Shown: positions 6,055-40,092 of the stretch, one piece after another | How positions within the stretch are numbered: position 1 is the first letter of the stretch | Layout of the letters: each line of letters starts with the position of its first letter | Origin: Candidatus Entotheonellaceae bacterium | Lineage (GTDB): Bacteria; Tectomicrobia; Entotheonellia; Entotheonellales; Entotheonellaceae | DNA: 64,000 nt | Direction of reading: 5' to 3' | Assembly: GCA_965238075.1 (NCBI GenBank) | Contig: OZ250173.1 | Location: forward strand, 2,848,001 to 2,912,000 | The notes under the pieces: generated by a model | Told to the model about the DNA's origin: nothing | Database searches by the model: none | Seen by the model: only the letters and a program-made list of their open reading frames with translations | Position numbers and translations under genes: made by a program

Positions 6055-7265
6055 GGAATCGGTACTCCTTTCCGTTCTTCGATGGGATATCCCTCCTCGT
6101 CCACCATCGCTCGCAGGCGGGGTTCCAGGGCCGCCGCCATGAAGCCCTGCTTGCGGACGATAAATTCAGGGTAGACCGTCAGTCGGGGGCGCAGCCTCAG
6201 GCCCAACTCGTCGGACACACGTTCCAGCGTTTGAATCTGTGGCCAGGGCGCTTCGGGATTGATGAAGTCGATCGTCAGGGGGGAAATGCCGCCCCAGTCG
6301 TTGATACCGGCGGGGATCAGCAATTGGTATTGTTCCGGGGTCAGGTTCGGCGGCACTTGCAGGTTGACGTCGCCGCTCAGCATGAGCCGGGCCACGGCGG
6401 TTGTGCGCATGAAGTCCAGCAAGGTCGGCTCCGGCTGCGCGTGCATCGGGATGTCCGGCTTGGCCCGGAAATTTTGAATAATCACTTCCTGGATATGGCC
6501 GTACCGGTCATGTAGGTCTTGAATCGCTTCGAGAGTCTCCACCCGTTCGGCGAACGTCTCACCAATGCCGATCAGCATGCCGGTCGTGAAGGGGATGCCC
6601 AGCTTGCCGGCGTTTTCAATTGTCTTCAATCGTACCGTGGGGTCTTTATCCGGCGCCTCGTCGTGGGCCATGCCCGGACCCAGAAGGCGACGGCTGGTGC
6701 TTTCCAGCATAAGACCCATGCTTGGGCTCACGTCGCGCAACCGCTCGAGGTCCTTGCGACTCATGACGCCCGGGTTGGCGTGCGGCAGCAGCGGCGTCTC
6801 GTCGAGAACGAGCTGGCACATCTCCACCAGGTAATCCACGGTGCGCCGGTGGCCGTACTGCTGCAAGGTCTGACGCATCTCCGGGAACAACGCTTCGGGC
6901 TTGTCGCCCAGGCTGAACAACGCCTCTTTGCAGCCCAGCTTGGCCCCGTCCTGGGCCACCTGCAGCACCTCGTCCGGGGTCATGGTCTTGGCGCCGGGCT
7001 CGCCAGGGTCTTTGCGAAACGTGCAGTAGCCGCAGTAATCGCGGCAGAGATTCGTCAGCGGCAGGAAGACTTTGGGGGAGTATGTGATAGTGGCGCCGTG
7101 GTGCCGCGCCCGCAGGCTGTCAGCCACCTGCAGGAGGGCCAGCAGTTCGCTGCTCGTCAGGTGCTCGAAAGCGACCATCTCCTGGGCCGACAGCGGCTCC
7201 CCGGCTTCGGCACGGTTCAGGGTTTCCGCAATGGCGGGACGGCACGCCGAACTGATCAAGGTCAT
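6051..7265 (-). CDS. cofG: FO synthase subunit 1 (radical SAM)
   Basis: TYSPKVFLPLTNLCRDYCGYC, LLPHANPG, GHIQEVIIQNFRAKP, GINDWGGISPLTIDFINPEAPWP. Start chosen at ATG 7265 and uncertain. Confidence 0.9.
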   Translation of the reverse strand: MTLISSACRPAIAETLNRAEAGEPLSAQEMVAFEHLTSSELLALLQVADSLRARHHGATITYSPKVFLPLTNLCRDYCGYCTFRKDPGEPGAKTMTPDEVLQVAQDGAKLGCKEALFSLGDKPEALFPEMRQTLQQYGHRRTVDYLVEMCQLVLDETPLLPHANPGVMSRKDLERLRDVSPSMGLMLESTSRRLLGPGMAHDEAPDKDPTVRLKTIENAGKLGIPFTTGMLIGIGETFAERVETLEAIQDLHDRYGHIQEVIIQNFRAKPDIPMHAQPEPTLLDFMRTTAVARLMLSGDVNLQVPPNLTPEQYQLLIPAGINDWGGISPLTIDFINPEAPWPQIQTLERVSDELGLRLRPRLTVYPEFIVRKQGFMAAALEPRLRAMVDEEGYPIEERKGVPIP

Positions 7266-7477
7266 GCAAGCTGCTCGATGTTCTGAAGAGGCCTTTAGGG
7301 AAGCGCCCACACCGACATTCCCGCAGGCATGCAAGGCGTGAACGTGATTTGAAATGTTGGCAATTGGTAACACACGGGAGCGCGGCTTGTCAATGATCCG
7401 GCCTTTTGTTAGCGTTGGCCCTGGCCATGGGTGGGAGGCATCCGGCGCGTAGGTAAAGGCGACTTGAGGAGGGAGCG

Positions 7478-15946: not shown

Positions 15947-17275
15947 ATGTTCGCAGGGCTGATTGACAAGGTGCGGATTCAGGCTTTGACCACGATAGGG
16001 ACGTGTTTTGGCCTGCTGATGTGTCTGACGCCGGGCGTGGTGCAGGCGCAGGAAGAGGCCGCTATCAATGCGGGCGACACCGCCTGGGTGCTGACCTCGT
16101 CAGTACTCGTCTTGATGATGGTGGCGCCGGGCTTGGCGCTGTTCTACGGCGGTCTGGTGCGCCGCAAGAACGTGTTGGCCACCCTGATGCAGAGTTTCAT
16201 TCTGCTGGCCATGATCAGCGTGCAGTGGGTGTTGTGGGGATACAGCCTTGCCTTTGGCCCGGATATTGGCGGCGTGATCGGCAACCTCGATTATCTCGGC
16301 CTGATGGGAGTAGGGGGCGAGCCCGGCCCGTACGCCGACACCATTCCGCACTTGGCGTTCATGGCGTTTCAGGGCATGTTCGCGGCCATTACCCCGGCGC
16401 TCATCACGGGCGCCTTTGCCGAGCGCATGAAGTTTTCCGCCTTCCTCATCTTCGGTCTGCTGTGGAGCACCCTGGTGTACGACCCGCTGGCCCACTGGGT
16501 GTGGGGCGGTGGATGGATCGGTGCCATGGGGGCGCTGGATTTTGCTGGCGGCACCGTGGTGCACATCAATTCCGGTGTCTCCGCGCTGGTATGCGCCATC
16601 GTGCTGGGCAAACGTCGTGGCTTTCCGGGTGAGCACATGCCGCCGCACAACTTGCCGCTCGCCGTTGTTGGCGCGGCCCTGCTTTGGGTCGGGTGGTTCG
16701 GCTTCAACGCCGGTAGCGCTCTGGGAGCCAATGCGACAGCAGCGTTTGCGTTCGTCACCACCAACACGGCGGCGGCGGCGGCGGCGCTGACCTGGATGTT
16801 TGCCGAGTGGCGCTACTCCGGCAGGCCCACCATGCTGGGCGCCGCGACCGGCGCGGTGGCGGGCTTGGTAGCGATTACCCCGGCAGCGGGTTTCGTCGGG
16901 CCGCTTTCGTCGCTCCTCATTGGCATCGTAGCCGGTCTGTTGTGCTTCGCCGCCGTGGTCATGAAGGTCCGCCTGGGGTACGACGACTCTCTGGACGTTG
17001 TCGGCGTGCACGGTGTCGGCGGTGCCTGGGGCGCCCTTGCGACCGGCCTGTTTGCCGCCGCCGCGATCGGCGGCACGAACGGGCTGTTTTTCGGCAACGT
17101 GGCGCAGATGGGGCCGCAGATCGTCAGCGTGGTCGCCACCTGTGTGTACGCCGCGGCGGTGACCTGGATCATCCTCAAGGTCCTGGATATGACGGTCGGC
17201 CTGCGGGTTTCGCAGGAAGACGAGCAAATGGGCCTCGACCTGAGCCAGCACAACGAGGCCGGCTACACGTTATAG
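15947..17275 (+). CDS. amtB: Ammonium transporter
   Basis: [50 protein letters not shown]. Confidence 0.96.
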
Positions 17276-17302
17276 GCGTGGGCCGCGGGGAGGATTTGTG
17301 GC

Positions 17303-17620
17303 ATGCATTTGACGCCGCGCGAGGTGGACAAACTGCTGGTGTTCGTGGCTGCGGACGTGGCGCGCCGCCGCCGCGAGCGCGGGCTGAAGCTGAACTACCC
17401 GGAGGCGATGGCCCTGATCACGGCGGAAATCATGGAAGGCGCCCGCGATGGACGCTCGGTGGCGGAGTTGATGCGCTACGGTGGGCAGATTCTGCGCCAC
17501 GACGAGGTCATGGAGGGCGTTCCGGCCATGCTAACCGAAGTGCAGGTGGAGGCGACCTTCCCAGACGGCACCAAGCTGGTGACGGTGCACGATCCACTGC
17601 GGGCAGGGGAGGAACAATGA
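17303..17620 (+). CDS. ureA: Urease gamma subunit
   Basis: [11 protein letters not shown]...LNYPEA...[16 protein letters not shown]. Confidence 0.97.
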
Positions 17621-18011
17621 CAATGACTCCAGGCGAATACATCCTGCGCGCCGAGCCGGTGCAGGCCAACGTGGATCGCGACACGGTGGATCTGGAAGTC
17701 GCCAATCACGGCGACCGGCCGATTCAGGTGGGCTCGCACGTTCATTTCTTCGAAGTCAACAAGGCGCTGGTCTTTCCCCGCGCCGCCGCCTTCGGCATGC
17801 ATCTCAACATCCCCGCCGGCACCGCGGTGCGTTTCGAGCCGGGCGACCGCAAGCAGGTGACGCTGGTCGCCTTTGCCGGGCGACGCGAGATGTACGGTGT
17901 CAACAATCTATGCGACGGCCCGTTGACCGACGAACGGCGCGCCGAGGCGCTGGCCCGCGCTCTGAGCGCGGGGTTCGGCAACGCCGAGGCGCAGCAGGAA
18001 GGAGGGCAGGG

Positions 18012-18015
<4 letters not shown>
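17617..18015 (+). CDS. ureB: Urease beta subunit
   Basis: MTPGEY...[19 protein letters not shown]...[16 protein letters not shown] overlap with ureA. Confidence 0.95.
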
Positions 18016-19727
<1,712 letters not shown>

Positions 19728-19736
19728 GAGGCAGCA

Positions 19737-20465
19737 GTGTTCACGGGCGCGCAGCCCCTCCCCAGCGGCCAGGCCCTGTGGCACCTCCTGCAAACAAGCG
19801 ATCAATTCTTTCCCACCGGCGGTTTCGCCTTTTCGCATGCTCTGGAGATGTACGTGGCGGCGGGCTTGGTGTATGACCGCGCCACCTGCCAGCGGCTGTT
19901 CATCGACCTGTTCAACCATGCCATGGGTCCCACCGACTTGGTGTTCTGCGCCCACGCCCATCGTCTTGCCGCCGGGCCCGATGACGCCGACGTCAAGCTG
20001 TCGTCCCTGGTGGACCTCGACTGTCTGCTGGCCGCCACAAAGGTGCCGCGCGAATTGCGCCTCGAGAGCCAGCACATCGGCAGATCGTTCTTGCGCGCCG
20101 CCATGGCGCTGTCGCCGTCGCCCCTGTCGCTGTCGTTCTGGCAGCAGGTGCAGCGGGGTGCGTCGCCGGGCCACCACGCCGCGGCCTTCGGGCTGGTGGC
20201 GCACGAACTCGGATCGCCGGAGACCACTGCCGTGCTGGCGTACCTCTATACGGTGGCCAGCAGTCTGGTCGCAGCCGCCGTTCGACTGGTGCCGCTCGGC
20301 CAATCCGACGGCCAGCGCCTGCTGCACGAGCTGCAGCCGCGTTGTCTGGAACTGGTGCAGCGCTATGCCCACCTCACCCCTGAGGACGCCTGGAACGGCG
20401 CGCCGGGGCTGGATATTCGCAGCATGCAGCACGAGCGGCTGTATTCCCGCCTGTGCCGCTCATGA
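19737..20465 (+). CDS. ureF: Urease accessory protein F
   Basis: DQFFPTGGFAFSHALE, AAVRLVPLGQ, HERLYSRLCRS. Confidence 0.92.
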   Translation: MFTGAQPLPSGQALWHLLQTSDQFFPTGGFAFSHALEMYVAAGLVYDRATCQRLFIDLFNHAMGPTDLVFCAHAHRLAAGPDDADVKLSSLVDLDCLLAATKVPRELRLESQHIGRSFLRAAMALSPSPLSLSFWQQVQRGASPGHHAAAFGLVAHELGSPETTAVLAYLYTVASSLVAAAVRLVPLGQSDGQRLLHELQPRCLELVQRYAHLTPEDAWNGAPGLDIRSMQHERLYSRLCRS

Positions 20466-20500
20466 AAGCAGAATTCATTCACGCATGAGGGAGAAACAGG

Positions 20501-21208
20501 ATGCACGACGTGTATCGAGAGGCGCCGCACACCCATCATGCGGCGTTGTTTGACTGGCCCGGCAAGGCGCCCAAGCCCCTGACAATCGGGGTTGGCGGTC
20601 CGGTCGGCTCCGGTAAGACGGCGCTGGTTGACAGGCTTTGCAAGGCGCTGCGCGACAGCTACCGCCTCGCGGTGGTCACCAACGACATCTACACCCGGGA
20701 AGACGCCGAATTCCTCTGCCGTAGCGGCGCCCTGGACGTCGAACGCATCGTCGGCGTTGAAACCGGCGGCTGCCCGCACAGCGCCATCCGGGAAGACGCT
20801 TCCGTAAACCTCGAAGCCATGGCCGGCCTGGCGGAGCGCTTTACTGACCTGCAGCTCATCTTCGTCGAAAGCGGCGGCGACAACCTGGCGGCCACCTTCA
20901 GCCCCGAGCTCGCCGATTTCACCATCTACGTCATCGACGTCGCCGCCGGCGACAAAATCCCCCGCAAAGGCGGCCCCGGCATTACCCGCTCCGACCTCCT
21001 GCTCATCAACAAGATCGACCTCGCCCCCCACGTCGGCGCCGACCTTCAGGTCATGGACCGCGACGCCCGCAAGATGCGCGGCGACCGGCCGTTCATCTTC
21101 ACCAACCTCTTGACCGGCCAAGGGCTTGATACGGTTGTCGGTTGGGTGCGGCGCCACGTTGATGCCGTGCTGAAAGACGGACGTGCGGAGCCCATTTCAG
21201 ACGCATGA
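20501..21208 (+). CDS. ureG: Urease accessory GTPase G
   Basis: [39 protein letters not shown]; His-rich N-terminus. Confidence 0.96.
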
Positions 21209-21238: not shown

Positions 21239-21661
21239 TCAAGCGCGCTCCTCTGGCTCTCCCCATACCTCAACACCAAGACCTGGAACACGAGCAAACT
21301 CGCGGACATTTGCTGTAAGGATGGTCAAACCGTGGGCAAGACAGGCGGCCGCAAGCCAGAGATCATTCGGCCCAATGATGTTACCCACTGCGGCCAACTC
21401 TGCCCATACTTGCGCGTGCAATCGGGCGGTCGCCAAGTCTATTGGCAATAAAGGAAAGCGTTCCAACAGCGCTTCGACAAATGCCGAACGCTTCGCCCGC
21501 ACACCCGACTGCACCGCACGATGCACGCCGTGGAGAAGCTCGCTCGCGGTGACAACAGAGATGAAGAATTCTTCCTGCCGTCGCTGTTCGGGATGACGTT
21601 GCAGGTCGAGACGCCCACGCTCGTACTCGATCAGGATGCTGGTATCGATCAAGACGGCCAC
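21239..21661 (-). CDS. PIN-domain toxin (VapC family)
   Basis: GTG start; LIDTSILI...SVVTASEL...IGPNDLWLAAACL...LTANVREF; overlaps the antitoxin. Confidence 0.9.
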   Translation of the reverse strand: MAVLIDTSILIEYERGRLDLQRHPEQRRQEEFFISVVTASELLHGVHRAVQSGVRAKRSAFVEALLERFPLLPIDLATARLHAQVWAELAAVGNIIGPNDLWLAAACLAHGLTILTANVREFARVPGLGVEVWGEPEERA

Positions 21662-21927
21662 GGGTCTCGGACCTCCACACGCGCCAGTTCTGCCCGCGCC
21701 GTTCTGAGGTCGTCGGCAAATTGCCTGGCTTCGTCTGGGGTGAGATGGGGTAGCGAGGCCAGCAGCGCGGGAAGTTCCGCCAGCCGTTTCCCCATGGGAA
21801 GGGGACGAAGTTCCGCCACAGGCTTGTTGCCGCGTACAAGTACGAAGCACTCGCCACGGTAGGCTACACGGTTGATGTATTCTGCAAAATGGCGCGCTGC
21901 CTCGGTAACGGAAAGCGTCTGGATCAT
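21649..21927 (-). CDS. Phd/YefM-type antitoxin (VapB role)
   Basis: LSVTEAARHFAEYINRV...VLVRGNKPVAEL; directly upstream of the PIN gene. Confidence 0.85.
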   Translation of the reverse strand: MIQTLSVTEAARHFAEYINRVAYRGECFVLVRGNKPVAELRPLPMGKRLAELPALLASLPHLTPDEARQFADDLRTARAELARVEVRDPWPS

Positions 21928-22138
21928 CAGATTCTCCCAAGTAAGATTATCTCCATTATACGACAGATAGTCATATTATCTGATTATCATCTTGCTCTCC
22001 ATCGATCCACTGCTGCGCGTTTTCGCTACTCGCATCCCCCGGCCTTCGTGGGATTGACAAAGCCGGGGCAGGGGGCTACGGTGCGCGTCGGTAAACGCCT
22101 ACTCACGTTCAAGAACCGTCAAAACGAAGGAGTATGGT

Positions 22139-25760: not shown

Positions 25761-26762
25761 CTATTGAACATGACGGTCTTCCGACCGACCCACTTCGATA
25801 GAGAGATCACCAAAAAGTTGGCGCGTTTCATGGATTTTTTCGCTTGGAACAATCAGCCGGGTAGCCATCTCAAACAAATCACCCGGGTTGGGCTGAGAGA
25901 GTGAAACTGCTCTGTCTACGCGGCGAAATGTTTCATTCTTATACCCCAACTCACGTTTCCAAAAGGCGTTGTCGAGATCGATGAGACATTGCTTCTCGTT
26001 CTCGTCAAGGGTACGCCCACGAGGGGCTTCATTGACAAAATAGCCCGCCGTAATTCGCCATTCACGTTGCCTATAGTAGCCAAGCAGTTCATCAACGTGC
26101 TCGTCGTCTGTTGGGTAGAATAGCGACTGTGCAATGGAAGTTACTGCTGTCATTGCTTCAAAGGGCGCGTTTTCAAAGCCAATAAAACTCAGAAGATCTT
26201 TTATCGCACCCCATGGGACTTGAAACTCCTGAAGAGTTCCTCTTTCTTCATCGCCATTCCTCAGATTAAACATGCAGTCATCACTTATCCGTGTGGCCCC
26301 CGGAAACTTGTTTTGGACATGGGCTGGGTCGTTGAACCGATTCAGAAAATTAAGCTGTTCCAGCGTATGCCTGATGTGATCAGTATGACTTACAAGAAAC
26401 GCACCCAATAATGCCATATGGTCCTGCTCTGACAATGCTTGAGGCATGTAGATTACGGGTAACGCTCCAGCACGCCTCAACGCCATAATGTCAAATTCGA
26501 TGGCGAACGGGCCAAAACGCTTTGAATGTTCTCCTAATTCGTTTCGCGACAACTCAGTAAAGCAGACGCGCTGTTGCAAAAGTCGGATGGGCGATGGACT
26601 CCCGATACTGACTGGTGTTCTCCACTCGACAATTTCTGGAGCCAAAATCAAGCCCAGCCGCTTCATCGATTGGATGATAGACCATCCCCTATCAATAGTC
26701 TGGCTAGGTGTTTGCCCGACGCGCGGTCTTGGAAAGCTGTGATAAAAATACCTGGGAGCCAT
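25761..26762 (-). CDS. AbiGi-like putative phage-defence protein
   Basis: YFYHSF near the N-terminus, VCFTELSRNELGEHSKRFGPFAIEF...GALPVIY and YYRQREWR resemble the AbiGi family pattern. Visibly lower GC than its neighbours. Confidence 0.55.
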   Translation of the reverse strand: MAPRYFYHSFPRPRVGQTPSQTIDRGWSIIQSMKRLGLILAPEIVEWRTPVSIGSPSPIRLLQQRVCFTELSRNELGEHSKRFGPFAIEFDIMALRRAGALPVIYMPQALSEQDHMALLGAFLVSHTDHIRHTLEQLNFLNRFNDPAHVQNKFPGATRISDDCMFNLRNGDEERGTLQEFQVPWGAIKDLLSFIGFENAPFEAMTAVTSIAQSLFYPTDDEHVDELLGYYRQREWRITAGYFVNEAPRGRTLDENEKQCLIDLDNAFWKRELGYKNETFRRVDRAVSLSQPNPGDLFEMATRLIVPSEKIHETRQLFGDLSIEVGRSEDRHVQ

Positions 26763-26870
26763 CCTGAGAATTCCCCTTTGCCGAGAACGATGAAGGTGGC
26801 AAACCTGCGATTCTCTCCGTGAGGTTAAATGTTCGTGGCACTTGTAGCTCCTTAAAGCCAACTAACCATT

Positions 26871-29800
26871 CTACACCGCCACCCGCGTCTCCGTATCACC
26901 CGCTGCCAGAGCGTTCATGTAGGCCAGAATCAGGTCCCGCGTGCGGTAGCGGCCGAATTGCTTTTCGTCCTCGTGGCGCACGATGGGGAAGGTGTCGAGC
27001 ACGTAGCCGACGTCTTCCCGTGATAGGCCGTAGAGGTGGAAGTAGAGGGCGTCGAGGCGGGCGCGCAGGTGGCGGCGTTCTTCGTCGTCCCAGGGGAAGG
27101 GCGGGCCGTCGTAGCCGAGGTCGCGGGCGAAGGGGGCCATGTCGTGGGCGGTGTAGGTGAGGCGCAGCACGTGGTCGCGGACGAGGGCACGGGCGGTCGT
27201 TGCGCCGAATGGCCGGTCGTAGTCCGCAGGGGCAATGACAGGGAGTTGCTCGACGATGTACCAGTTGAGGTGCGTTCCTTGTGTCTTTTGCCTGACGACG
27301 AAGTCCACGCACAGGGAGTTCAGGTTGCCCACAAGGCATGCAGCAAGCGGGGCGCTCAGAGAAGAGCTGTCGCCCAGCAGCAAAGGCAACGTGTTCCCAT
27401 AGCCCGCCCACGGAACGATTGCGGCGATCAGGGTCCGCACATCCGTCGGTCTGCCGATGTCACGGAACCCCACTGTCCAGCTTCGTGACAGGGGTAGAAC
27501 CTGTTCCACGTCTGATTCTGGAACCCAGTATTGCGTCTGCGGAAGAAAGTCAGGATCAGCGCGCTCCGTATCGGCCACCGGTTCACTCAGATAGGGATTA
27601 TGGGTGTTCGCCGGGTTCACACGAACCGAGTTGGCACGATGGTCGAAATGTCCAATCATCCGTCCCTGATACAGCGGCAGATACAGGTCCTCCCCCCGTT
27701 TCCAGCGATTGCCCTGCACCGGGTAGAAACCTTCTGTGTCGAGTTGCGTGGCGGTGCGGAAGCGGTTCGAGTCGTTGGTCATGTCGAACATGCGCACGTA
27801 CCGCACCGGCCACGCCTTGCGCTCGCCGCCGCCAGAGCGGTCCACCAGTATGGGATGCCGTTCGTAGATACGGCGGGTGATGTCCGCATCGCGTCGGGTG
27901 CGGAACACGGGCGCGGTGCCGGTGTTGGGATTGACGCGGGCAAAGTCGGACGGCGCCAGCGGGAAGCAGCGGTCCGCGTCGTCTATCTCGGCGGTGTCGT
28001 GCAGGAAGAAGGCGCAACGCGTCTCGTTGAACCGTCGCGCTTCGCCGCCAACGATCAGGGCGCAGAATTTGAACGAAGCATGGATGTCCTTAAAGAAGAT
28101 TTTTTATTCTCGAAATCAAACAGCCCGCGTAATCGCCCGCTCGTGGACACGGACTTGAAGAAATCGGCCGCCGTCTTGTCGGCGCATATGCCCGACGGCG
28201 TCAGCAGGCCCACCAGGCCGTCGGGCTTGACTAGGTGCATGGCCCGCTCAACGAACAGCGAATACAGGTTGATGTCGCCGCCGCCGAGCAGCGGGTAATC
28301 GTCGGACACCCGCACCAGTTGGCCCAGACTGTCGGCGCGCGCCTTGGCGTCGTCGAACGCGGCGGCCAGCGGATCACCCGCGTCGCGCAGTCGCTGGATG
28401 CCTTTTCGCCGTGCCGCCGCGGTTGGCGCCAGCGCGAGATCGGGGGCGCGGGTGGCGAACCACTCGACTTCCTGCAGCTTGATGCGGTCCCACGGCGGGT
28501 TGCCGATGACGGCGTCGAAACCGCCTTCCGGGCGGACGTTCTGCCAGTGTTGCCAGACGCCGGGAAAAGCAGCCTCCCAGTGCAGGAAGCCTTCGCGGTC
28601 GGCAATGGCGCGGGCATTGCGCCACAACTCGGCAAACTGCGCCCAGGCCGCGGCGTCGGCATGGGGCGGACGATCCGTACGCTCCGGGCCACGAGCCAGC
28701 AGGCTGTAGGCATCGTCCCGCAAGGCGGCCACCAGTTGACCCTCCGCCCGGTCTTTCTCGCGCGTCTTCACGCCCGCCGTCATCCACCGCCAGCCGCAGA
28801 CGAAATCGAGCAGGCCGCGCAGGTCGGCGGTCGTCTCCTCTACCCGCACGAACAGCGACGCCGATTCCCGCACCTCGGCCACGTCGGCGTCGGACATCGC
28901 CTCGATGCGCTGCATGCCCGCGGTGGCGGCCTCGGCGCCGGCGATGGCGGAACCGGCGAACAGGCCGCCGAGCCGGTGCAACTCGCCCGTGGCATCCTGC
29001 ACCCGCACCCCGATGAGCGAGTCGCCAACCCGCAGGTGGTGGTCCAGGAAGGACAGCGGCGCGCCCACCGTGAAGCTGTGCAGCCACAGCGACACCTTGG
29101 CCAGCTCCACGGTCAGGCGGTTTTTGTCGACGCCGTAGATGCAGCGCTTGAGCACCATGCGTCGGATAATGGCCTGATCCGTCAATTGGGCTTCGTCGAT
29201 GATCCAGTTGGACGCCGCGGCGCGTTGCAGGATGTCGTGGCGGATGCGCTCAATGCGCTGCACCAGCGGCGAGGCGTAGGTGCCGTCCAGCCACGCCGGG
29301 ACCGCCGGCACGTACTCGATCAATTCGGAGATGTAGTCCGACAGGAAATCCACCGCGGTGACCAGGAAGTGGCCGCTGCCCATTGCCGGGTCGAGAACTT
29401 TGAGGTCCAGGACCGCCTCGGCCGGGTCGAGCTTGGTGAGTTCGGCGTGCCGTTTCGCCTTGGGATGGCGGTCATTTTGCAGCGCCGCGGCCTCGCCCTC
29501 GAAGGCCTTGAGCCGTTCCTCCGCCAAGGGCTTGAGGGTGTTGTCCACGATCAGATCGACCAGTTCCTGGGGGGTGTAGAAACTGCCGCTGTCCTTGCGA
29601 ACGTATGGATTGGGGCGGATGGTGATGCTGCCATCGTCGTGACGCACCGGCTCGTGCTCCAGCAGGCGTTCGTAGATCGAGCCGAGTTGCTGCACGGACA
29701 TGTCGCGGTAGTTGACAAAGTGGGACTCGCGGTGGCTCATGGCGTAGATGATGGGCGCGACGGCGGCGTCCGACAGGCGAACGGTCTCCAGCATCGGGGC

Positions 29801-30883
29801 GGACGCGGGCGCAAACAGGCCGCCGTTGTATGGGGGCAGGCCGATGGAGGCGTCGCCCTTGTCGATGAGGGTGAACAGCGTTGTCAGATGGTTGTAGTAG
29901 CTGGCGGCGTGGGCGGAGAAGGTGTCGCCGTCTTGGGTTCGCCGCGCGATGTCGTCGCGCACCCGTTTGCGCAGGCCGTAATCATCGTAGCGCGGGTCGT
30001 TGACGGGGAGCAGCCCGCGGTCTTCGGCGTACAGCACGAACAGCAGCCGGTACAGAAAGATCAGCGCCGCGTCGCGGATTGCCGACAAGTCCCGCGTCGA
30101 TTTCCGGGCGAGGGCGGTCACAAGCCCCGGGAACACGGTGTCGAACACCACGTTGGAGAGGTCGCGCGCCACCTGCTCCTCGTAGCGGCGCCCCTCGGCG
30201 AGCGCGGTTTCCAGGAAGGAGGCCTGCGCCCCATCCCGTAGGTTGGAGGAATCCCGGCGGAACAGCAGGTAGAACGTGCGGAGCGCGTCTTCGTTGCCGG
30301 ATCGCAGCAGGGCTGTGAGATCGGTCTCGTAGTAGCCGCTGGCGCGCGGCCGGGCGCGGGTGTCGTAGAGCCGCCAGACGCCGCCGTTGGTCAAGATACC
30401 CCAGCGCAGGCGCCCGTCGGTGACGCTGTCGGCGGTGGACAGATAGCGGCGTATCTGCCCGTGCGGCGTGCCCGCTCGGGCTTTCCCGGTTGCCTCGCGA
30501 GTATCGAGGGGCAGGCCGAACCGCTTGCTCTCTTCAATGAGCAGGGCGTCCCGGTAGCGTTCTTCGGAGTCGTTGCGGCCGGCGGCGCGGGCCTTGGATT
30601 CGGTGTCGGCGAACAGCAGATGGTCGGGGATGTCTTCGTTGCGCGCCGCGCCCTGCTGGGGCAGGCTGTGGACTCAGCCGAGCAACGCCAAAACGGGGCG
30701 GATCAGGTCCTGCTCGGTGACCGATTCGTTGGGGCTGTCGTAGTGGCTGAACGCCTCGAAGCGCTCGGCAACGGTACTGGCGAACGCGGTGAAGGCTTGC
30801 GGCCGGTCAACGGACGCCTGCCATTCAGGGGTGTGCCGGATGCCGTCGGTCAAAAAGTACTGGGTGAACAATTGGCCGGGCAT
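26871..30883 (-). pseudogene. Type IIG (Eco57I-like) restriction-modification fusion, disrupted
   Basis: PD-(D/E)xK-like N-terminus (IPDHLLF...IEESKRF...WGILTNG), GSFYTP, VLDPAMGSGHFL, GNPPW, C-terminal TRD. In-frame TGA at 30674-30676 and a frameshift in an A6 run at 28100-28105. Confidence 0.85.
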
Positions 30884-32494: not shown

Positions 32495-33658
32495 TCAGTC
32501 GTCGGACCGGCTAACGGTTGACGCCGGCTGCTCGCTCGGGCGTGGCACCGGTTCTGGGCGACGGGCCGGAGCGCCGGCAAGCCGAGCGCGCAGCCGCCGG
32601 ATGCCCCGGCGGCACTGGCTGGGGATGCCGACGATGCCATCGGGGAAGAACAAGACGACGGCCACGAACAGACCGCCCAGGATCACCGGCCACCATTCCG
32701 GAAAGCGAGTCGTCAGAACGCTGCGTGCCGCATTGATGCCCACCGCACCGATGATCGCACCGATGAGGCTGTTACGCCCGCCGGTTGCGACCCAGACGAC
32801 GATTTCCAGCGACGGCAACACCCCGATCTGACTGGGCGTGATAATACCGACTTGCGGCACATACAAAGCGCCCGCCAAGCCGCCCAACGCCGCGGCCACG
32901 GCAAAAATGAAGATCTTGTACGAGGCGACCGGATAGCCCAGAAACCGCAGGCGCTGTTCCTGGTCGCGCATGGCGGTCAGCACCAGCCCCATTTTCGAGC
33001 CCACCAGCCAGCGGCAGATGAAAAAACTGACGACGAGCAGAAGCGCGGTGCACAGGTACAACCCGCGTTGTGTGCTCGGCTCGCTCAGCGGATAACCCAG
33101 CACGCTCTTGAAATCCGTGAGACCGTTCGTGCCGCCGAGGTTGAGTTCGTTGCGGTTGAACATCAGCCACGTGGCGAAAGCCATGGCCTGGGTCAGAATG
33201 GCGAAGTAGGTGCCGCCGACGCGCCGCCGAAACGTCAGAAAGCCGATAATGGTGGCGGCTACGACCGGCAACAGCAGGGCCGCGGCCAGGGCGAAGGGCA
33301 GGGAGTGGAAGGGTTTCCAGTACAACGGCAGCTGGGTCACCTGGTTCCACACCATGAAGTCGGGAACGGCCTCTCCGTACACGCCTTTGCCGCTCGATTC
33401 GAGCATCAGGTACATGCCGAATGAGTAGGCGCCAATGCCGAAGAAGATGGCTTGCCCCAGACTCAAGATGCCGGAGAACCCCCAGATGAGGGCCATGCCC
33501 ATGGCCAGTATGGACAGCGACAGGTATTTACCGAACAGGTTGAGGTAGTAGTCGGAGATGTGCCCGGAGGCGTTCAGCAGCGGCAAGCCGATAAGCAGAA
33601 TAACTGCGAGCAGGGTGCCTGGCAGCAGCGCTTCTTTCCAAGCTGAGGTGGGTTTCAT
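32495..33658 (-). CDS. urtC: Urea ABC transporter permease
   Basis: GILSLGQ, PDFMVWN...LP.YW, GGTNGLTDFK, YVPQVGIITP. Confidence 0.9.
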   Translation of the reverse strand: MKPTSAWKEALLPGTLLAVILLIGLPLLNASGHISDYYLNLFGKYLSLSILAMGMALIWGFSGILSLGQAIFFGIGAYSFGMYLMLESSGKGVYGEAVPDFMVWNQVTQLPLYWKPFHSLPFALAAALLLPVVAATIIGFLTFRRRVGGTYFAILTQAMAFATWLMFNRNELNLGGTNGLTDFKSVLGYPLSEPSTQRGLYLCTALLLVVSFFICRWLVGSKMGLVLTAMRDQEQRLRFLGYPVASYKIFIFAVAAALGGLAGALYVPQVGIITPSQIGVLPSLEIVVWVATGGRNSLIGAIIGAVGINAARSVLTTRFPEWWPVILGGLFVAVVLFFPDGIVGIPSQCRRGIRRLRARLAGAPARRPEPVPRPSEQPASTVSRSDD

Positions 33659-33676
33659 GGTCGCGGTTGACCTTCC

Positions 33677-35350
33677 TTATCGCAGCGCCCCTGCGGCCGT
33701 GCGTTCCTTGGCCGGGAAGAGACCCGTGGGTCTGATCTGCAGGAAAATGATGACCAGCACGAGAATGCTGACCTTGGCGTAAACGGCGGCGGCGGTGCCG
33801 GCGATCAGCGGCTCCAGAAGTTTGTTCGACATGCCGATGACGCCGGACGCCAGGACCGTGCCGAACAGTTTGCCGACCCCGCCCAGCACCACGACCATGA
33901 ATGAATCGACAATATAGGTCTTGCCTACCTCCGGGTCCACAGTGCCGATGAGGCTCAAAGCGCAACCCGCCAGCCCCGCCAAAGCGGTACCGAGCGCGAA
34001 GGTGAAGGCGTCAACTTTGCGTGTGGAAATGCCGATGCAGGCGGCCATGTCGCGATTCTGCATCACCGAACGGATGCGCAGGCCGACGTTGGAGCGATAC
34101 AGCAGCAGATACACCATGGCAAGGGCGAACACCGACAGGGCAATGATGAAGAGCCGGCTATAGGGGAAAATGAGCCCTGGCATGACCTCCCAGCCACCGC
34201 GAAACCAGGTGGGCGGACTGACGCTCGTTTGATCACCGAAATAAAGACGCGCGCCCTGTTGCAGCACCATGCCGATACCCCACGTGATGAGTAGGCTTTC
34301 GAGCGGGCGGCCATACAGGAAACGCAGGATGCCGCGTTCCATCAACAGGCCGACACAGCCCGCCGTTAGGATGGATAAGGGCAGAGCAAAGATGAAGTAA
34401 TAGTCAAGATAATCCGGCAGGTGTGAGGTGAAGAATTCTTGCAGCACGTAGGCGGTGTACGAGCCGATCATCAGCATTTCGCCATGCGCCATGTTGATGA
34501 TGCCCATCAGTCCGAAGGTAATCGCGAGTCCCAGGCTCATGATCAGCAGGACGGAGGCAAGACTCACGCCGTTGAAGATGTAGCCGACGCTGTTGCGAAC
34601 AAGCAGAAAATTCTCAATGGTTTCGACGGCTCCGATGACCGCGGCCCGTACTTGGGGGTCGGGCTCCTGCTGGCGCATTTCGCGTAAGCGGCTCAGCGCG
34701 GCTTCCGAGCGCCTGTCACCGAAGTAGTTGACGGCCGCGCGCCGTGCCTGCGCTTCCGGCGCGAACAATTGCAATTTGTTGACGGCCTCGATGAGGACGT
34801 TACGCACCACGGTATCCGGTTCCGCGTCGCGCGCCTTTGTCAGGATGGGAATGAGGGATACGTCGCGCATATTCCCCAGGCGCAGAGCGGTCGAGCGCCG
34901 CGCACCCGGATCCGATGCAAAAAGTGCGATAACGTCAAGAGCGCGTTGCACTAGCGGGATGTTTTCTTCCTCTAAGGGGACCTGCTCAAGACCCTCCTCG
35001 GGGAAAATGGCCTCACCGGCGTCGTCGAGCAGCGGGGTGCCGGCGAGGTCTACAAAAACCCCATCGTCGGTGAAGATGAGGAAGCCTTCCGGCCAGCGAT
35101 ACAGGGCGCCTTCCTTCAGGGCCTGGAGCAGGCCCCGGAAGGCCGGGTCGGCGAGGTCACGGATGTGCTCGAGGGTGGCCCGCTGGGTAGCGAGCGTGGC
35201 GAGGTCCTGGGCATAGTCGGCGGGCGTGTCCGCCGCGACCGACGCGTTGGGCAACGCGCCGCCGGCACAGCACACGACCAGCAGGAAGGTCAGGATGCGT
35301 AACAATTCAGGTCTCCGCGTGCTTGAAATAGTTACGGGGGAATCCCTCAA
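33677..35350 (-). CDS. urtB: Urea ABC transporter permease with N-terminal HEAT-like extension
   Basis: GLAITFGLMGIINMAHGE, LYGRPLE, YIVDSFMVVVLGGVG. Start uncertain. Confidence 0.9.
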   Translation of the reverse strand: MRDSPVTISSTRRPELLRILTFLLVVCCAGGALPNASVAADTPADYAQDLATLATQRATLEHIRDLADPAFRGLLQALKEGALYRWPEGFLIFTDDGVFVDLAGTPLLDDAGEAIFPEEGLEQVPLEEENIPLVQRALDVIALFASDPGARRSTALRLGNMRDVSLIPILTKARDAEPDTVVRNVLIEAVNKLQLFAPEAQARRAAVNYFGDRRSEAALSRLREMRQQEPDPQVRAAVIGAVETIENFLLVRNSVGYIFNGVSLASVLLIMSLGLAITFGLMGIINMAHGEMLMIGSYTAYVLQEFFTSHLPDYLDYYFIFALPLSILTAGCVGLLMERGILRFLYGRPLESLLITWGIGMVLQQGARLYFGDQTSVSPPTWFRGGWEVMPGLIFPYSRLFIIALSVFALAMVYLLLYRSNVGLRIRSVMQNRDMAACIGISTRKVDAFTFALGTALAGLAGCALSLIGTVDPEVGKTYIVDSFMVVVLGGVGKLFGTVLASGVIGMSNKLLEPLIAGTAAAVYAKVSILVLVIIFLQIRPTGLFPAKERTAAGALR

Positions 35351-35377
35351 GGAACTCCCCCGCGCACAGATCTTTAT

Positions 35378-36730
35378 TTATCGCTGAGACAGCCAGGCGC
35401 GGTCGCCATTCACCATATCATAGGTTCCCAGGCCGTCGCCGCTCCAATCGCAGGCCCGACCGGGATAGGTCAACTCGCTCCACGGCAGGGGCCGCACCCA
35501 CTCCTTGCTCTTCCACACGACGTCGAACTGACCATCTTCGCGGATTTTGCCGATGTAGACCGGCTTCCAGGTGTGATGGTTCTTCTCGTCGACCTTGTAA
35601 TTGCCGACGGGGCTGCTGACCGTCAGACCTTCCAGCGCCTTCAGAACCGGTTCGACGTCCGTGCTGCCGGCCTTCTCGACGGCCTGGGCCCACAGTTTGA
35701 CGTGCGTGTAGGCGTGCATCATCGGATCATCGGTCACGCACTGTTTGTCGGGGATGCCGCGCTTTTCGCACCATTTCTTGTACGCTTTCACCCACTTGAA
35801 GTTCTGCGGGGACTTCAGCGACATGTAGTAGTTCCAGGAAGCGAGATGGCCGGCCAGGGGCTTGACGTCCAGGGTCTGCAATTCGACCTCGGCAAAGCTG
35901 AACGAAATCACCGGACAGGTGTCGGCCGTGATGCCCTGATTGGCCAGTTCCTTGAAGAACGGCACATTGCTGTCGCCGTTGATGGTGTTGATCACAGCGC
36001 CATCACCGCCGGCACAGAAGCTTTTGATCTTGCCAACGATGGTCTGGTAATCCTGATGGTGAAACGGCGTGTATTCCTCAGCGATGCCGTCCTCCATGAC
36101 GCCCTTGGCCTTGGTGAGGTAGAGCCGCAGGATTTTGTTCGTGGTGCGCGGATAGACGTAGTCCGTACCTATAAGGTAGAAGCGCTTTTTGCCGCCGCCT
36201 TCCGGGCTCATCAGGTAATCCACCGCGGGAGAGGCTTGCTGGTTGATGGTCGCACCGGTATAGATGACGTTCTTGGAGCACTCTTCACCCTCGTACTGGA
36301 CAGGGTAGAAAAGGAGGCCGTTGTACTGCTCAAACACCGGCAGCACGGACTTGCGGCTGACCGAGGTCCAACAGCCAAAAACCGTCGCCACCTCATCTTG
36401 CGTTAGGAGCTTTTTGGCCTTTTCGGCAAAGAGGTCCCAATTCGAGGCGGGATCTTCCACGATCGGCTCGACAGGGCGCCCCAACACCCCACCAGCCTCG
36501 TTAATTTCCTCGATGGCCATGAGGATAATTTCCTTGAGGGGTCCCTCGCTGATGGCCATGGTGCCGCTCAGCGAATGCAACACGCCTACTTTGATGGGCT
36601 CCTGTGCCATGGCGCCGGTGCCCATCAGTCCCGCCAACAGGATAAGCGAGAGCCCGAGGGTGCAGGCCGTGCGTTTCACGGCCTGCCATTTGTGCGTGCG
36701 GGCCCAGCCCGCGGTGTGCAAGTTGGTCAC
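35378..36730 (-). CDS. urtA: Urea ABC transporter substrate-binding protein
   Basis: Signal peptide, IKVGVLHSLSGTMAISE, FGCWTSVSRKSVLPVFE, YPVQYEGEE, GTDYVYPRTTN. Confidence 0.95.
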   Translation of the reverse strand: MTNLHTAGWARTHKWQAVKRTACTLGLSLILLAGLMGTGAMAQEPIKVGVLHSLSGTMAISEGPLKEIILMAIEEINEAGGVLGRPVEPIVEDPASNWDLFAEKAKKLLTQDEVATVFGCWTSVSRKSVLPVFEQYNGLLFYPVQYEGEECSKNVIYTGATINQQASPAVDYLMSPEGGGKKRFYLIGTDYVYPRTTNKILRLYLTKAKGVMEDGIAEEYTPFHHQDYQTIVGKIKSFCAGGDGAVINTINGDSNVPFFKELANQGITADTCPVISFSFAEVELQTLDVKPLAGHLASWNYYMSLKSPQNFKWVKAYKKWCEKRGIPDKQCVTDDPMMHAYTHVKLWAQAVEKAGSTDVEPVLKALEGLTVSSPVGNYKVDEKNHHTWKPVYIGKIREDGQFDVVWKSKEWVRPLPWSELTYPGRACDWSGDGLGTYDMVNGDRAWLSQR

Positions 36731-37015: not shown

Positions 37016-38287
37016 TCAAAGCAAGTCGAGGCTGGGCGTGATGACCAGATGCAGGCGTCGATGGGCCTCGCGCAGGGTCTGTTCGACCGCCTGTGGGGTT
37101 TCACCGCGGGCAAAAATGAACCCGGGGTAACTGGCGCCCTCGGGGAAGGGCTGGAGTTTCTCATGCGGCTTGGCGGTGATCACAACATCTTCGATGCCGG
37201 GAAGGCTGAGTGCCGCGTCCAGGCCCGTCACATGTTTGAAAAAACCAGCGCGGGGAATGGGTAGCATCATAGTTCCGGCAGCAGCCTGCTCGCGTTTCAG
37301 AGAGGGCAGAGGGAGGCCGCACGCGTGACGGATGAGCAGCTCTTCAAGGGACATCCCGGTCCCAAAGCGCAGCGAGCGGCTTCACAAGCCGCCGATGGGC
37401 CGGGCGGCGAGTTCGAGGAGCCAGGGGCCTTGGCCGTTGACCCGAAATTCGGCGTGCAAAGGACCGTGGCAGAGACCCAGGGTAAGGGCTGCCTGTTCGG
37501 CGCAGCGGACGATCTCGGCCTGCAGGTCCGCACTGAGACGGGAAGGGGTGATGTAGAGGGTTTCTTCAAAAAAAGGACCGTTCAGCGGGTCGGGCTTATC
37601 AAACAGGGCCAACGGTTGCAGACGGCCCGCGGTTAACAGACCTTCCAGGGCGACCTCGGCACCGGGAATGAAACTTTCGATGAGGATCCCTTCGTTGGCT
37701 TCATCTTGTTTCTGGCGTATTTCATGCCGTTCCAGCAAGGCGCGCAACCGAAGGAAGGCGGCAATAAATTCGGCCGGGGTATTGGCCCGCATGACACCGC
37801 GACTCGCCGACAGGGCGAGCGGCTTAACGACACATGGGTACGGAACCTCGTGTTGCACGAGACGGGGGTCGGTTTGCATCGGGAAACACATAAAAGCCGG
37901 CACTTGCGCAAAAGTCGCCTGCAGGCGCTGGCGCATGAGGTATTTGTTGTGGCTGGACAGCACGGCGTCCGGTGGATTGTGCAGCAAACCCAACTCGCGG
38001 CTCGCTTTCGCGGCGCTGAGAAGAGGGGTGTCACCCACGGGGAGAATGGCGGCGACGGGTTGCTGCCCAGCAACATCGACGATGCGCCGTGCGGCTTCCT
38101 GTGGGCGCTCAAACCGTAGCGGCACGGCATCGTCTTCCCAGGGATCGTCCAGAACATCACAGCGGTCGCTGCCGAGCACCGTTTCCACGCCGAGTTGCTG
38201 AGCCGTCCGTATGAATTCTCGTGCCTCATACCCTGTCGTCGTATACAGGAGCATGAGCCGGGAACGGCCGACGTCGGGTGTTGTCAT
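37016..38287 (-). CDS. ATP-grasp domain protein, predicted selenoprotein (UGA at 37382-37384 = Sec302)
   Basis: ORFs 37382.. and 37016..37354 are in one frame: VVKPLALSASRGVMRA...IESFIPGAEVALEG...DKPDPLNGPFFEET...HAEFR...LELAARPIGGL-TGA-SRSLRFGTGMSLEE...YPGFIFARG. A hairpin follows the UGA. Confidence 0.8.
37339..37381 (-). promoter_or_regulatory. Candidate SECIS element of the ATP-grasp gene
   Basis: 18 nt after UGA the mRNA reads GGGAC-CGGGAU-GUCCC, extendable by GCUUU/AGAGC; G-rich apical loop at about +24 to +29. Confidence 0.6.
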
Positions 38288-38339
38288 CCTGATTTCCCCA
38301 GACTGTGCGCATGGCCAGAGTACCAAGAAGACCTTGGTT

Positions 38340-39740
38340 CTAGAACGGAGCAACCTGCTCCTCGGTGGGTTCCGCTCAACAATACCACGGTTCATCAAGG
38401 TAAGGAACGGGCCCACGGGCTGGCGGGGCAACGGGGGCAGGCACCAGCGGAGCGGGAATTTGGGCGGCCTTGTGGGCGGCGTGCCAGAGGCGTTCAAATA
38501 TCTCATAGCGGCCGGCGCCTTCCGTCTCACCGCTTTGGACCAATTGGAGCGCCTCCGTGCAGAGGCCATCCATCCGTACGTCGGGATGTTCCCAGCGGTA
38601 CGACAGGGCGTCGGCGTCGAATTCCCGCAGCGACAGACCCATTTCGGGCAGGTCAAGCAGTTTGGAGCCGTCAGGGATCAGCAAGCGCATGGCGAGTTGG
38701 ATGGGTGCGACGTGTTCGATCAGACCTTGCGTGGCGATTACGGTCAGTAAGTCGATATAGTCGGGCAAAAAGGTCCAGGGCATGAAGGCGACAAAGGTCG
38801 GATTGAGGCAAATTTCGGCTTGCCTGCACCGGGCCAGAGCCTGGAGAAAATCCTGTCGGGTGTGGCCTTTATCGAGCAGACGCAGAACGCCATCCTGGAC
38901 GGACTCCACGGCGCTCGTCACCATCAGGCAGCCGGTTTGGCGGAGGGTGGGCAGATGCTCGTCATACCGCAACAGGTGTTCTATCTTGATGGTGACGTCG
39001 TAGGTGAGGCTGGGGAACTCCCGGTGCAGGTCATGCACCAACGGCACGGCGTGGCCGATACCGTTGAAAAAATCGGGGTCGCCAAAGGTCACGTGCTCGG
39101 CGCCGGCCGCGACCTGGCGCCGGATATCTTCCAGGACGACGTCCCTCTGCACGATGCGAAAACGGCCCTCATAGACCGGCACGATCGGACAATGGCGACA
39201 GAAGTGTTTGCAGCCGCGGCTGGCTTCCGTGTAGCCGACGACGTGTGACCGCTCGCCTATTTTGAGTTGGGCGTAAACTGGCAGGGGGGGTAAATCGCGC
39301 CGATCAGGTACCTGAAACTGTTGGCGATCCAGGGAAGTGACGACTTCCGGCTGTTGGGCAGGGGGTGTGGAATCTGTCTGAAGGCGTTGCACGAGTCGTA
39401 ACAGCCCAGATTCAAATTCCCCACCGAGCAGGGTGGCGGCCCCCAGTTCGCGTAACAATCGGTCATTCATGGGGGCGTAAAGGCCATAGAAGCAGAGGTG
39501 AGCTTGCGGGTTAAGGGTCTTGACATGTTTCGCAACCTGGATGGCAATCCGCGTTGCGGTGTGCATGGGGATGTAGAAGGCCACAAGGTCGGCCGCCAGA
39601 ATGGCCTCACGGTCCAGGCGACTGCGTGACAAATCCTGGCACCGAACCGTCGCTCCTGCCTGTCGTAGCCAAGCGGCAGGGGAAGCCAGGCCAAAAGGCT
39701 GCCGTCCCAATTCATAGGTTGCGAGGAGTACAACACGCAC
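38340..39740 (-). CDS. CUAEP-tail radical SAM selenoprotein with B12-binding-like N-terminal domain
   Basis: ASRGCKHFCRHC (CxxxCxxC). C-terminus reads PVPYLDEPWYC-TGA-AEPTEEQVAPF-TAG (TGA 38376-38378; true stop 38340-38342). Start is GTG 39740 or 39749. Confidence 0.88.
38343..38375 (-). promoter_or_regulatory. Candidate SECIS element of the radical SAM gene
   Basis: 14 nt after UGA the mRNA reads GGAGCA-GGU-UGCUCC (6-bp stem), with a lower GAAC/GUUC pairing; loop G at about +21. Confidence 0.7.
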
Positions 39741-39771
39741 CGTGGCCACCCTAACGGATGCCGCTCTCAAG

Positions 39772-40092
39772 CTAGCCCTTGCCCATTGGCGGAACGTACC
39801 CTGGCGGCAGGGCAGCGCCTTCGCCGAAAAAGAATTCTTCCATTTGCTGACGGATGAACTCGTCGGCTTGTGGGTCCATGACATTCAGACGGTATTCATT
39901 TAGAATCATCGTCAGGAAGCCTTTCCACAATTCCCAAGCCTCCATGGAGATGTTTTCATAGATACGTTGACGTAATTCAGCCCCTCCCATCGATTCAGTC
40001 ATTTCCAAGGCAATGCCGCCCTGAAGATCGTCCTCATCAATACCAGGAGCCTCTTTTTGAAGCTTTGTGCAGTAGACGAATCGTTGCGTCAT
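39772..40092 (-). CDS. yggX: Fe(II)-trafficking / Fe-S oxidative-damage protection protein
   Basis: VYCTKLQKEAPG...RIYENISMEAWELW...TMILNEYRLN...MEEFFFG...GYVPP. Confidence 0.85.
   Translation of the reverse strand: MTQRFVYCTKLQKEAPGIDEDDLQGGIALEMTESMGGAELRQRIYENISMEAWELWKGFLTMILNEYRLNVMDPQADEFIRQQMEEFFFGEGAALPPGYVPPMGKG

Follow-up and report, generated by a model that had tools for sequence, protein, structure and literature searches.

Does a radical S-adenosylmethionine (SAM) enzyme of a Candidatus Entotheonellaceae bacterium end where its gene appears to stop, at a TGA that directly follows a cysteine codon, or is that TGA read as selenocysteine (Sec), and what would a C-terminal Cys-Sec pair do in such an enzyme? 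The gene lies on the minus strand of a 64,000-nucleotide stretch of DNA (the window; assembly GCA_965238075.1, contig OZ250173.1, positions 2,848,001 to 2,912,000), to which all coordinates refer unless a locus of another genome is named. A sequence-only reading of this DNA had proposed a hidden Cys-Sec tail that could act as a swinging redox or metal(loid)-binding arm, carrying an intermediate to an ATP-grasp partner. Here, by comparing the gene and its neighbours with their homologues, we conclude that the TGA is almost certainly decoded as Sec and that the adjoining gene, which encodes an L-amino-acid ligase (LAL) of the ATP-grasp type, probably specifies a second selenoprotein. From the kinship of the radical SAM protein with ArsL, an enzyme of arsinothricin biosynthesis, we propose more tentatively that the two proteins act in sequence, the first transferring SAM's 3-amino-3-carboxypropyl (ACP) moiety to an atom held by Cys-Sec and the second turning the product into a dipeptide. 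The argument about the tail turns on the following features.

38340..39740, minus strand: radical SAM gene of the CUAEP/CCAEP-tail family, with the TGA read through (NF040546, Pfam)
39189..39212, minus strand: CxxxCxxC motif CKHFCRHC of the radical SAM [4Fe-4S] cluster (C178, C182 and C185, invariant in two alignments)
38376..38381, minus strand: predicted vicinal Cys-Sec pair, TGT (Cys) at 38381-38379 and TGA (Sec) at 38378-38376 (codon comparison)
38340..38375, minus strand: predicted tail after Sec, 11 codons AEPTEEQVAPF at 38375-38343, and the true stop TAG at 38342-38340 (read-through translation)
38347..38361, minus strand: hairpin GGAGCA-GGU-UGCUCC, +15 to +29 after the UGA, resembling a Sec insertion sequence (SECIS) element (fold and covariation)

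Read through on the minus strand from 38381 to 38340, the gene continues past Cys-TGA with AEPTEEQVAPF before a TAG, just as the sequence-only reading had it, and the C terminus would become ...QIPAPLVPAPVAPPARGPVPYLDEPWYC-U-AEPTEEQVAPF, with a Pro-rich stretch, IPAPLVPAPVAPPARGPVP, standing before YLDEPWYC. At the DNA level we compared the best 80 of 591 confirmed relatives from a genome scan. Directly after W[YF]C, 59 of these loci have TGA, 17 have TGC and 4 have TGT, none has TAA or TAG, and an in-frame [AST]EP comes next in 80 of 80 (locus L056 has TGA and then TEP). The hidden Sec codon first supposed from the letters is thus visible as an alternation of CU and CC forms (59 TGA versus 21 TGC/TGT loci), and none of the 80 loci ends at WYC with TAA or TAG and lacks the peptide. 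In protein collections, the best 120 relatives (69-100% identical) all end exactly at [DNS]EPWYC, and of the 150 representatives taken at 50% clustering, 38 stop at W[YF]C and 43 go on as W[YF]CC[AS][EM]P, the remaining 69 being fragments or frame-broken entries without the motif. The CU form also occurs in a cultured organism of another phylum, Thermomicrobium roseum DSM 5159 (megaplasmid NC_011961.1; locus L081, 7935-9440), whose radical SAM protein is 45% identical to that of the window and has C-TGA-AEP at this place, RefSeq ending the protein at the TGA; a cultured Nonomuraea strain carries the CC form.

The hairpin that the added codons had been said to encode is present at 38361-38347, and across loci it occupies the range from +13 to +31 nt after the UGA. 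As a control, nt +7 to +39 were folded against synonymous recodings of the same peptide in the 59 TGA loci plus the window, 60 sequences in all. Their mean is -11.3 kcal/mol versus -5.0 kcal/mol in the recodings, with 51 of 60 beating at least 95% of recodings; for the 21 Cys-codon loci the means are -7.0 and -5.3 kcal/mol, and 3 of 21 reach that mark. Taking the better of two registers for each sequence, in the TGA and Cys sets alike, stem levels 1-6 outward from the loop are paired in 60, 60, 53, 60, 57 and 55 of 60 TGA sequences versus 20, 10, 11, 18, 5 and 8 of 21 Cys loci. The TGA set contains compensatory stem changes (level 2, GC 36 and CG 24; level 6, GC 26, AU 23 and CG 6), and T. roseum has another stem, GGACCC-GUC-GGGUCC, yet at the identical place, +15 to +29; the loops are mainly AGUU, GGU or AGGUN. 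The signal appears solely under the coding-aware recoding control and in the TGA-versus-Cys comparison: whole-segment RNA folds set against dinucleotide shuffles are unexceptional (z -0.76 for the segment holding the radical SAM hairpin, +0.54 and -0.34 for two other segments), and an Rfam scan of 38200-38500 at a permissive threshold returned no curated SECIS family, its sole match being a chance miRNA. We conclude from the comparison that the hairpin behaves as a SECIS-like element within the last codons of the radical SAM gene.

Could the TGA nonetheless be a real stop, the protein ending at WYC and the downstream similarity and hairpin being incidental, for example a terminator or attenuator? 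RefSeq and gene callers do end the protein there, and the machinery for Sec was not found within the 64 kb window, neither selA, selB or selD, genes that can lie anywhere in a genome, nor tRNA-Sec, the five tRNAs present being Thr, Tyr, Gly, Thr and Trp; these observations may be put down in favour of a stop. A stop is at odds, however, with the want of TAA and TAG in 80 loci, with a Cys codon at the same place in 21 of them, with a conserved in-frame peptide after the TGA and with a hairpin tied to the TGA, and we regard it as scarcely credible and, for practical purposes, already refuted by the comparative data. A global reassignment of TGA was also considered and rejected: TGA is the commonest ordinary stop of the window and ends 14 of its 29 family-confirmed genes, so the genetic code is not globally changed. 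Because TGA alternates with TGC and TGT in the absence of TAA and TAG, because [AST]EP is constant and because the hairpin persists where the codon is TGA and has mostly gone where it is Cys, it is almost beyond doubt that the TGA at 38378-38376 is decoded as Sec and that the protein ends ...EPWYC-U-AEPTEEQVAPF.

Profile matches place the protein in NF040546 ('CUAEP/CCAEP-tail radical SAM (seleno)protein'; 631.8 bits, cut-off 500, profile positions 1-467 of 468), a family already catalogued though uncharacterised, so that the Cys-Sec tail as such adds no new family. A family of this name had been put forward in the sequence-only reading, and the profile search bears it out. Window protein and family have the CxxxCxxC motif in common, as well as the C[U/C]AEP tail, and there is no structural difference between the two; C455 is likewise invariant in the family alignment, and Pfam recognizes a Radical_SAM domain (PF04055, E 1.8e-11). 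Full-text searches found the family named in a single 2022 preprint, the available part of which terms it an 'uncharacterized' carrier of the rare CU motif, in keeping with the earlier statement that its function had not been characterized. The longest open reading frame (ORF) of the gene under translation table 11 (38376..39884, minus strand) runs into the yggX-like gene upstream. Since it overlaps that gene and since the NF040546 match begins only at residue 51 of this long ORF, the real start is probably the GTG at 39740, which yields M-R-V-V-L-L, as in relatives (family consensus M-x-(I/V)-L-L), and has AGGGTGG upstream; one database gene call puts the start about 10 codons upstream of 39740. 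Among the matches listed, the closest named relatives of the window proteins are Tectomicrobia/Entotheonella entries at about 70-75% identity.

The AlphaFold2 model of the radical SAM protein has a mean pLDDT of 94.6, with values of 87-93 in the Pro-rich linker and about 74 in the tail. The predicted fold resembles AprD4, TsrM, MgmA and OxsB, with an N-terminal B12-binding-type domain, and also MiaB and RimO; it is like that of the cobalamin-binding TsrM and OxsB and like that of AprD4, and NCBIfam matches to B12/radical SAM families are weak, far below their cut-offs. A sequence search of the PDB matched MiaB alone (E 0.001) and found no ArsL structure. These linker and tail values do not suggest a floppy arm of the swinging kind put forward in the sequence-only reading.

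What the tail may do is suggested by the second-best NCBIfam model for the protein, that of ArsL (NF040542, 'rSAM_RCCLKC'; E 6.5e-82, 275.9 bits). RCCLKC-tail proteins encoded on Bacillus/Priestia plasmids are 34-36% identical to the window protein over the whole catalytic core, and in the alignment the terminal CC of the RCCLKC tail falls on the C-U of the window. ArsL is the nearest characterised family and has two adjacent C-terminal Cys at the corresponding position. The window family departs from it by a linker longer by about 40 residues, an added AEP tail, a Sec, and two chalcogen ligands versus three Cys. As described in the available text of the work on ArsL (10.1101/2024.02.01.577332; 10.64898/2026.04.29.721666), that enzyme cleaves SAM to 5'-methylthioadenosine (MTA) and an ACP radical and joins ACP to As(III), a newer proposal replacing the radical by an Fe-C(ACP) organometallic species; its C-terminal CCxxC motif holds As(III), and when RCCLKC is deleted or mutated product formation and arsenic binding are lost and SAM cleavage is kept. 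Because the ArsL tail binds As(III) and its CC aligns with C-U, the Cys-Sec pair may, by analogy, hold the atom that accepts ACP. The metal(loid)-binding part of the earlier interpretation thereby gains indirect support, from the C-terminal CC..C of the nearest characterised family, and that interpretation as a whole is partly supported. We put ArsL-type ACP chemistry for the window enzyme at somewhat less than even odds. Vicinal Cys-Sec is also common to the CU-motif heavy-metal selenoproteins (MerB-like SAO-locus proteins, some HgcA, MerT), whose folds are unrelated and which the motif alone links to the window protein; as far as its available text goes, the author of the 2022 preprint proposes that the Cys-Sec of CU-motif selenoproteins contacts a heavy-metal atom.

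The same pair could instead be a redox device, and this is the main rival to atom binding: Cys-Sec would cycle between selenol/thiol and selenenylsulfide as hydrogen-atom donor or electron relay for a canonical 5'-deoxyadenosyl-radical enzyme, possibly of the cobalamin type, and would hold no substrate atom. Mammalian thioredoxin reductase ends Gly-Cys-Sec-Gly (GCUG), with Sec penultimate, and like the window protein has its vicinal Cys-Sec on a C-terminal extension; it is of another enzyme class, the window protein having no flavin or NADPH domain. The free interchange of Sec and Cys is usual for redox-active sites, and a fold class that includes AprD4, TsrM, MgmA and OxsB, with weak matches to B12/radical SAM models, fits such a role. 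On the other hand, the CC aligned in ArsL is a substrate-binding site and not a redox couple, the Sec is followed by at least 11 residues, a conserved AEP among them, which sets the tail apart from GCUG, and no reductase or thioredoxin partner recurs among the annotated neighbour families. We consider a redox tail unlikely.

The argument for atom binding at Cys-Sec draws in the next gene, in which the sequence-only reading had been silent on a second in-frame TGA.

37016..38287, minus strand: ATP-grasp L-amino-acid ligase gene, with the TGA read through (PF13535, PF18130 and PF18603 in one frame)
37382..37384, minus strand: in-frame TGA, putative U302, in the motif ARPIGGL-U-SRSLRF (Cys in relatives)
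37348..37363, minus strand: candidate hairpin GGGAC-CGGGAU-GUCCC, +19 to +34 after the ligase UGA (weak evidence)

Under table 11 the ligase gene is two ORFs in one frame, of 301 residues (ATG 38287, stopping at the TGA) and 112 residues (37016..37354). Read through, it runs ...LELAARPIGGL-U-SRSLRFGTGMSLEEL... and gains LAL_C2 (PF18603, E 1.2e-16); ATP-grasp_4, ATPgrasp_N and LAL_C2 stand in one chain solely if the TGA at 37384-37382 is read through. The model of the read-through protein is a complete fold (AlphaFold2 pLDDT 89.5 overall, 83-87 at the junction), and residues 49-417 align with the L-amino-acid ligase BL00235 (PDB 3VOT; E 3e-36), its nearest relative of solved structure. At the U302 site, a single ORF with Cys (IGGLC[AS][RKQD]) is found in all 49 loci that have both halves, and 88 of 89 full-length database relatives (at most 61% identical) have GG[LI]C. 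Among the 120 ligase relatives listed, the closest 30 (73-100% identical) end, as protein sequences, at [PA]IGGL, and in 72 of 120 listed matches (66-95% identical) the downstream half stands alone as a 112-residue ORF, each time with LAL_C2. From the TGA to the downstream ATG the codons are conserved in frame as well, since five relatives whose gene calls use alternative starts further upstream open with (L)RFGTG-M....

A split gene or pseudogene was judged unlikely, because both halves are conserved at 66-100% identity and the codons from TGA to ATG still encode SR.LRFG.G in the window and in the five relatives with upstream starts. With a TGA at an invariant Cys and both halves under selection, the pattern seems to be a signature of Sec and not of a pseudogene. 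The candidate hairpin after this UGA does not discriminate: although just 3% of synonymous recodings match it in folding, 12 of 49 loci of the Cys form do equally well. The ligase scores below the cut-off of every NCBIfam model, and a full-text search for selenocysteine or selenoprotein together with ATP-grasp found no paper. The ligase is probably an uncatalogued selenoprotein adjoining the radical SAM gene, and it is the most novel result here.

Three cysteine positions, C43, C152 and C/U302, are invariant in a 39-sequence ligase alignment, the third being Sec in the window's clade; As(III) is usually bound by three thiolates. These residues set the ligase family apart from BL00235 (3VOT) and BacD (3VMM, 3WNZ), with which it has a three-domain LAL architecture in common. 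Methionine, in the same terms, is ACP-S-CH3. The Cys/Sec aligns two residues after Trp332 of BacD (the aligned row is the W332A mutant, 3WO1), which the available text of PMC6920838 names as a key pocket residue, reporting also that BL00235 makes Met-Gly and Met-Met and takes Met as N-terminal substrate. A side observation concerns the 890-residue PRK02186, named argininosuccinate lyase: its N-terminal half matches the ligase (37016-38287, minus strand) and its C-terminal half a 567-aa ArgH-like protein at 2199-3902 (minus strand), about 33 kb from the ligase.

A third gene lies directly upstream of the radical SAM gene.

39772..40092, minus strand: YggX-like Fe(2+)-trafficking ('oxidative damage protection') gene (NF003817, 98.8 bits, cut-off 74; PF04362)

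The minus-strand order in the window is rpoZ, the yggX-like gene, the radical SAM gene, the ligase, a gap of about 285 nt, and urtA. Between the TAG of the radical SAM gene and the ligase start are 52 nt with a second small hairpin just past the TAG, CCAAG-GUCUU-CUUGG (38318-38335, minus strand), which has no U-run. In tblastn searches the ligase is present in 51 of the 80 loci and the YggX-like gene in 42. When the count is confined to the 56 loci that have 3 kb or more on each side, the ligase is found in 41 and the YggX-like gene in 34, always with the ligase; the other 15 have neither the ligase (within 8 kb) nor the YggX-like gene and show no recurrent substitute neighbour. T. roseum has no ligase nearby, its neighbours being a PLP aminotransferase, an MFS transporter and a large GNAT protein. 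The cassette is spread over Acidobacteriota, Methylomirabilota, Chloroflexota, Tectomicrobia-like and other lineages. Near the radical SAM gene there are also aconitase (28 loci), glucose-6-phosphate dehydrogenase (G6PD), glucokinase and other genes; the aconitase, G6PD and glucokinase neighbours look like lineage synteny, and with aconitase, NifU-like and YggX-like genes so frequent the surroundings take on an Fe-S character. Among the annotated neighbour families there is no recurrent ars, methyltransferase or transporter family. A complex prediction, with alignments, for the CC-form radical SAM-ligase pair from locus L035 scored 0.00 against a mark of 0.32 and allows no call either way. Functional coupling of the two enzymes stands, in our judgement, at an even chance.

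An ATP-grasp ligase also occurs near RCCLKC-tail genes. Both such loci examined, on Priestia and Bacillus cereus plasmids (L082, 1635-8137, and L083, 1444-13245), carry one; it is 23% identical to the window ligase (E 1e-18) and has no Cys at the site equivalent to U302. Neighbours there are ArsR, an MIP channel, a GTP-binding protein and a phosphate transporter, and the Bacillus cereus locus additionally has a GNAT acetyltransferase and an ars operon. These ligases hint that peptide derivatives of arsinothricin-like amino acids may exist.

On this basis we propose that the radical SAM enzyme acts like ArsL, its nearest characterised relative. The Cys-Sec pair would hold a soft, thiophilic atom, which might be As(III), another metalloid or a selenium or sulfur species, and the ACP group of SAM would be joined to that atom on the C terminus. 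The product, ACP-X, a methionine-like amino acid, would then, one step further removed from the evidence, be the substrate of the co-operonic L-amino-acid ligase. That ligase, which has a Cys (here putatively Sec) within the segment that in BacD lines the substrate pocket, would make a dipeptide from ACP-X, and the Fe-S cluster of the radical SAM enzyme may be supported by the YggX-like protein through its role in iron trafficking. This sequence of ACP transfer and dipeptide formation is the most likely mechanism that we infer from homology and gene context.

Several observations weigh against it. The ArsL model's cut-off of 450 is not reached at 275.9 bits, and the third Cys of the ArsL CCxxC/RCCLKC motif has no counterpart in the window tail, where C-U stands alone. 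The window ORFs scanned gave no ars gene context (arsM, arsR, transporters), nor does an ars family recur among the annotated neighbour families of the other loci. The fold class also includes cobalamin-dependent methylases, and 15 of 56 long-flank loci have neither ligase nor YggX-like gene. With these counted, we give the best explanation overall, a Sec tail with ArsL-type transfer and a ligase step, a probability of about 0.45.

The conserved ligase also invites another account, the one closest to the idea of the sequence-only reading, in which ACP or another group is put on the enzyme's own Sec/Cys tail, or the tail serves as a carrier, and the ATP-grasp ligase works on the tethered group. 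The LysW/LysX carrier systems and diphthamide, in which ACP transfer is followed by an ATP-dependent step, offer analogies, and the acidic tail [CU]AEPT.[ED]Q conserved after the pair would suit a tether. Such an enzyme, however, would turn over once if nothing released the group; the ligase, with its LAL_C2 domain, belongs to the LAL type, which acts on free amino acids, and not to the RimK/LysX type; and 15 of the 56 long-flank loci have no ligase nearby. We regard tethering as improbable.

In its boldest form, the proposal is that the YggX-like protein, the Cys-Sec radical SAM enzyme and the Cys/Sec ligase constitute a widespread, unrecognised pathway in which ArsL-type ACP transfer forges a carbon-heteroatom bond (C-Se, C-As or similar) and dipeptide formation follows, both enzymes being selenoproteins in the window's clade and the ligase the first selenocysteine-containing ATP-grasp enzyme. 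Taken in full, this remains doubtful, with the odds clearly against it.

The rest of the window holds genes of other kinds. It also encodes cofH/cofG (F420 chromophore synthesis), amtB, ureC/ureG of urease and urtABC for urea transport, at 4867-7373 (minus strand), 15947-21208 (plus strand) and 32495-36730 (minus strand), and its UrtB is extended at the N terminus by about 250 residues that contain HEAT repeats. A VapC-like toxin domain lies within a 233-aa ORF (21239-21940, minus strand), and a 779-aa protein (28055-30394, minus strand) has weak matches to BREX PglX-type adenine methyltransferases; the low GC content at third codon positions (GC3) of ORFs at 25761-26861, near these VapC-like and PglX-like genes, suggests an island.

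The tie to ArsL gives this uncharacterised selenoprotein a hypothesis that can be tested, on whether the enzyme forms MTA from SAM and on what is bound by the C-U pair. Cultured carriers exist for such experiments, T. roseum DSM 5159 for the CU form and the Nonomuraea strain for the CC form. The neighbouring ligase appears to be a new selenoprotein, the halves of which many database entries split into two proteins. ArsL-type chemistry has so far been known for arsenic only, and a sister family of far greater size in soil phyla could point to carbon-heteroatom natural products that are new.

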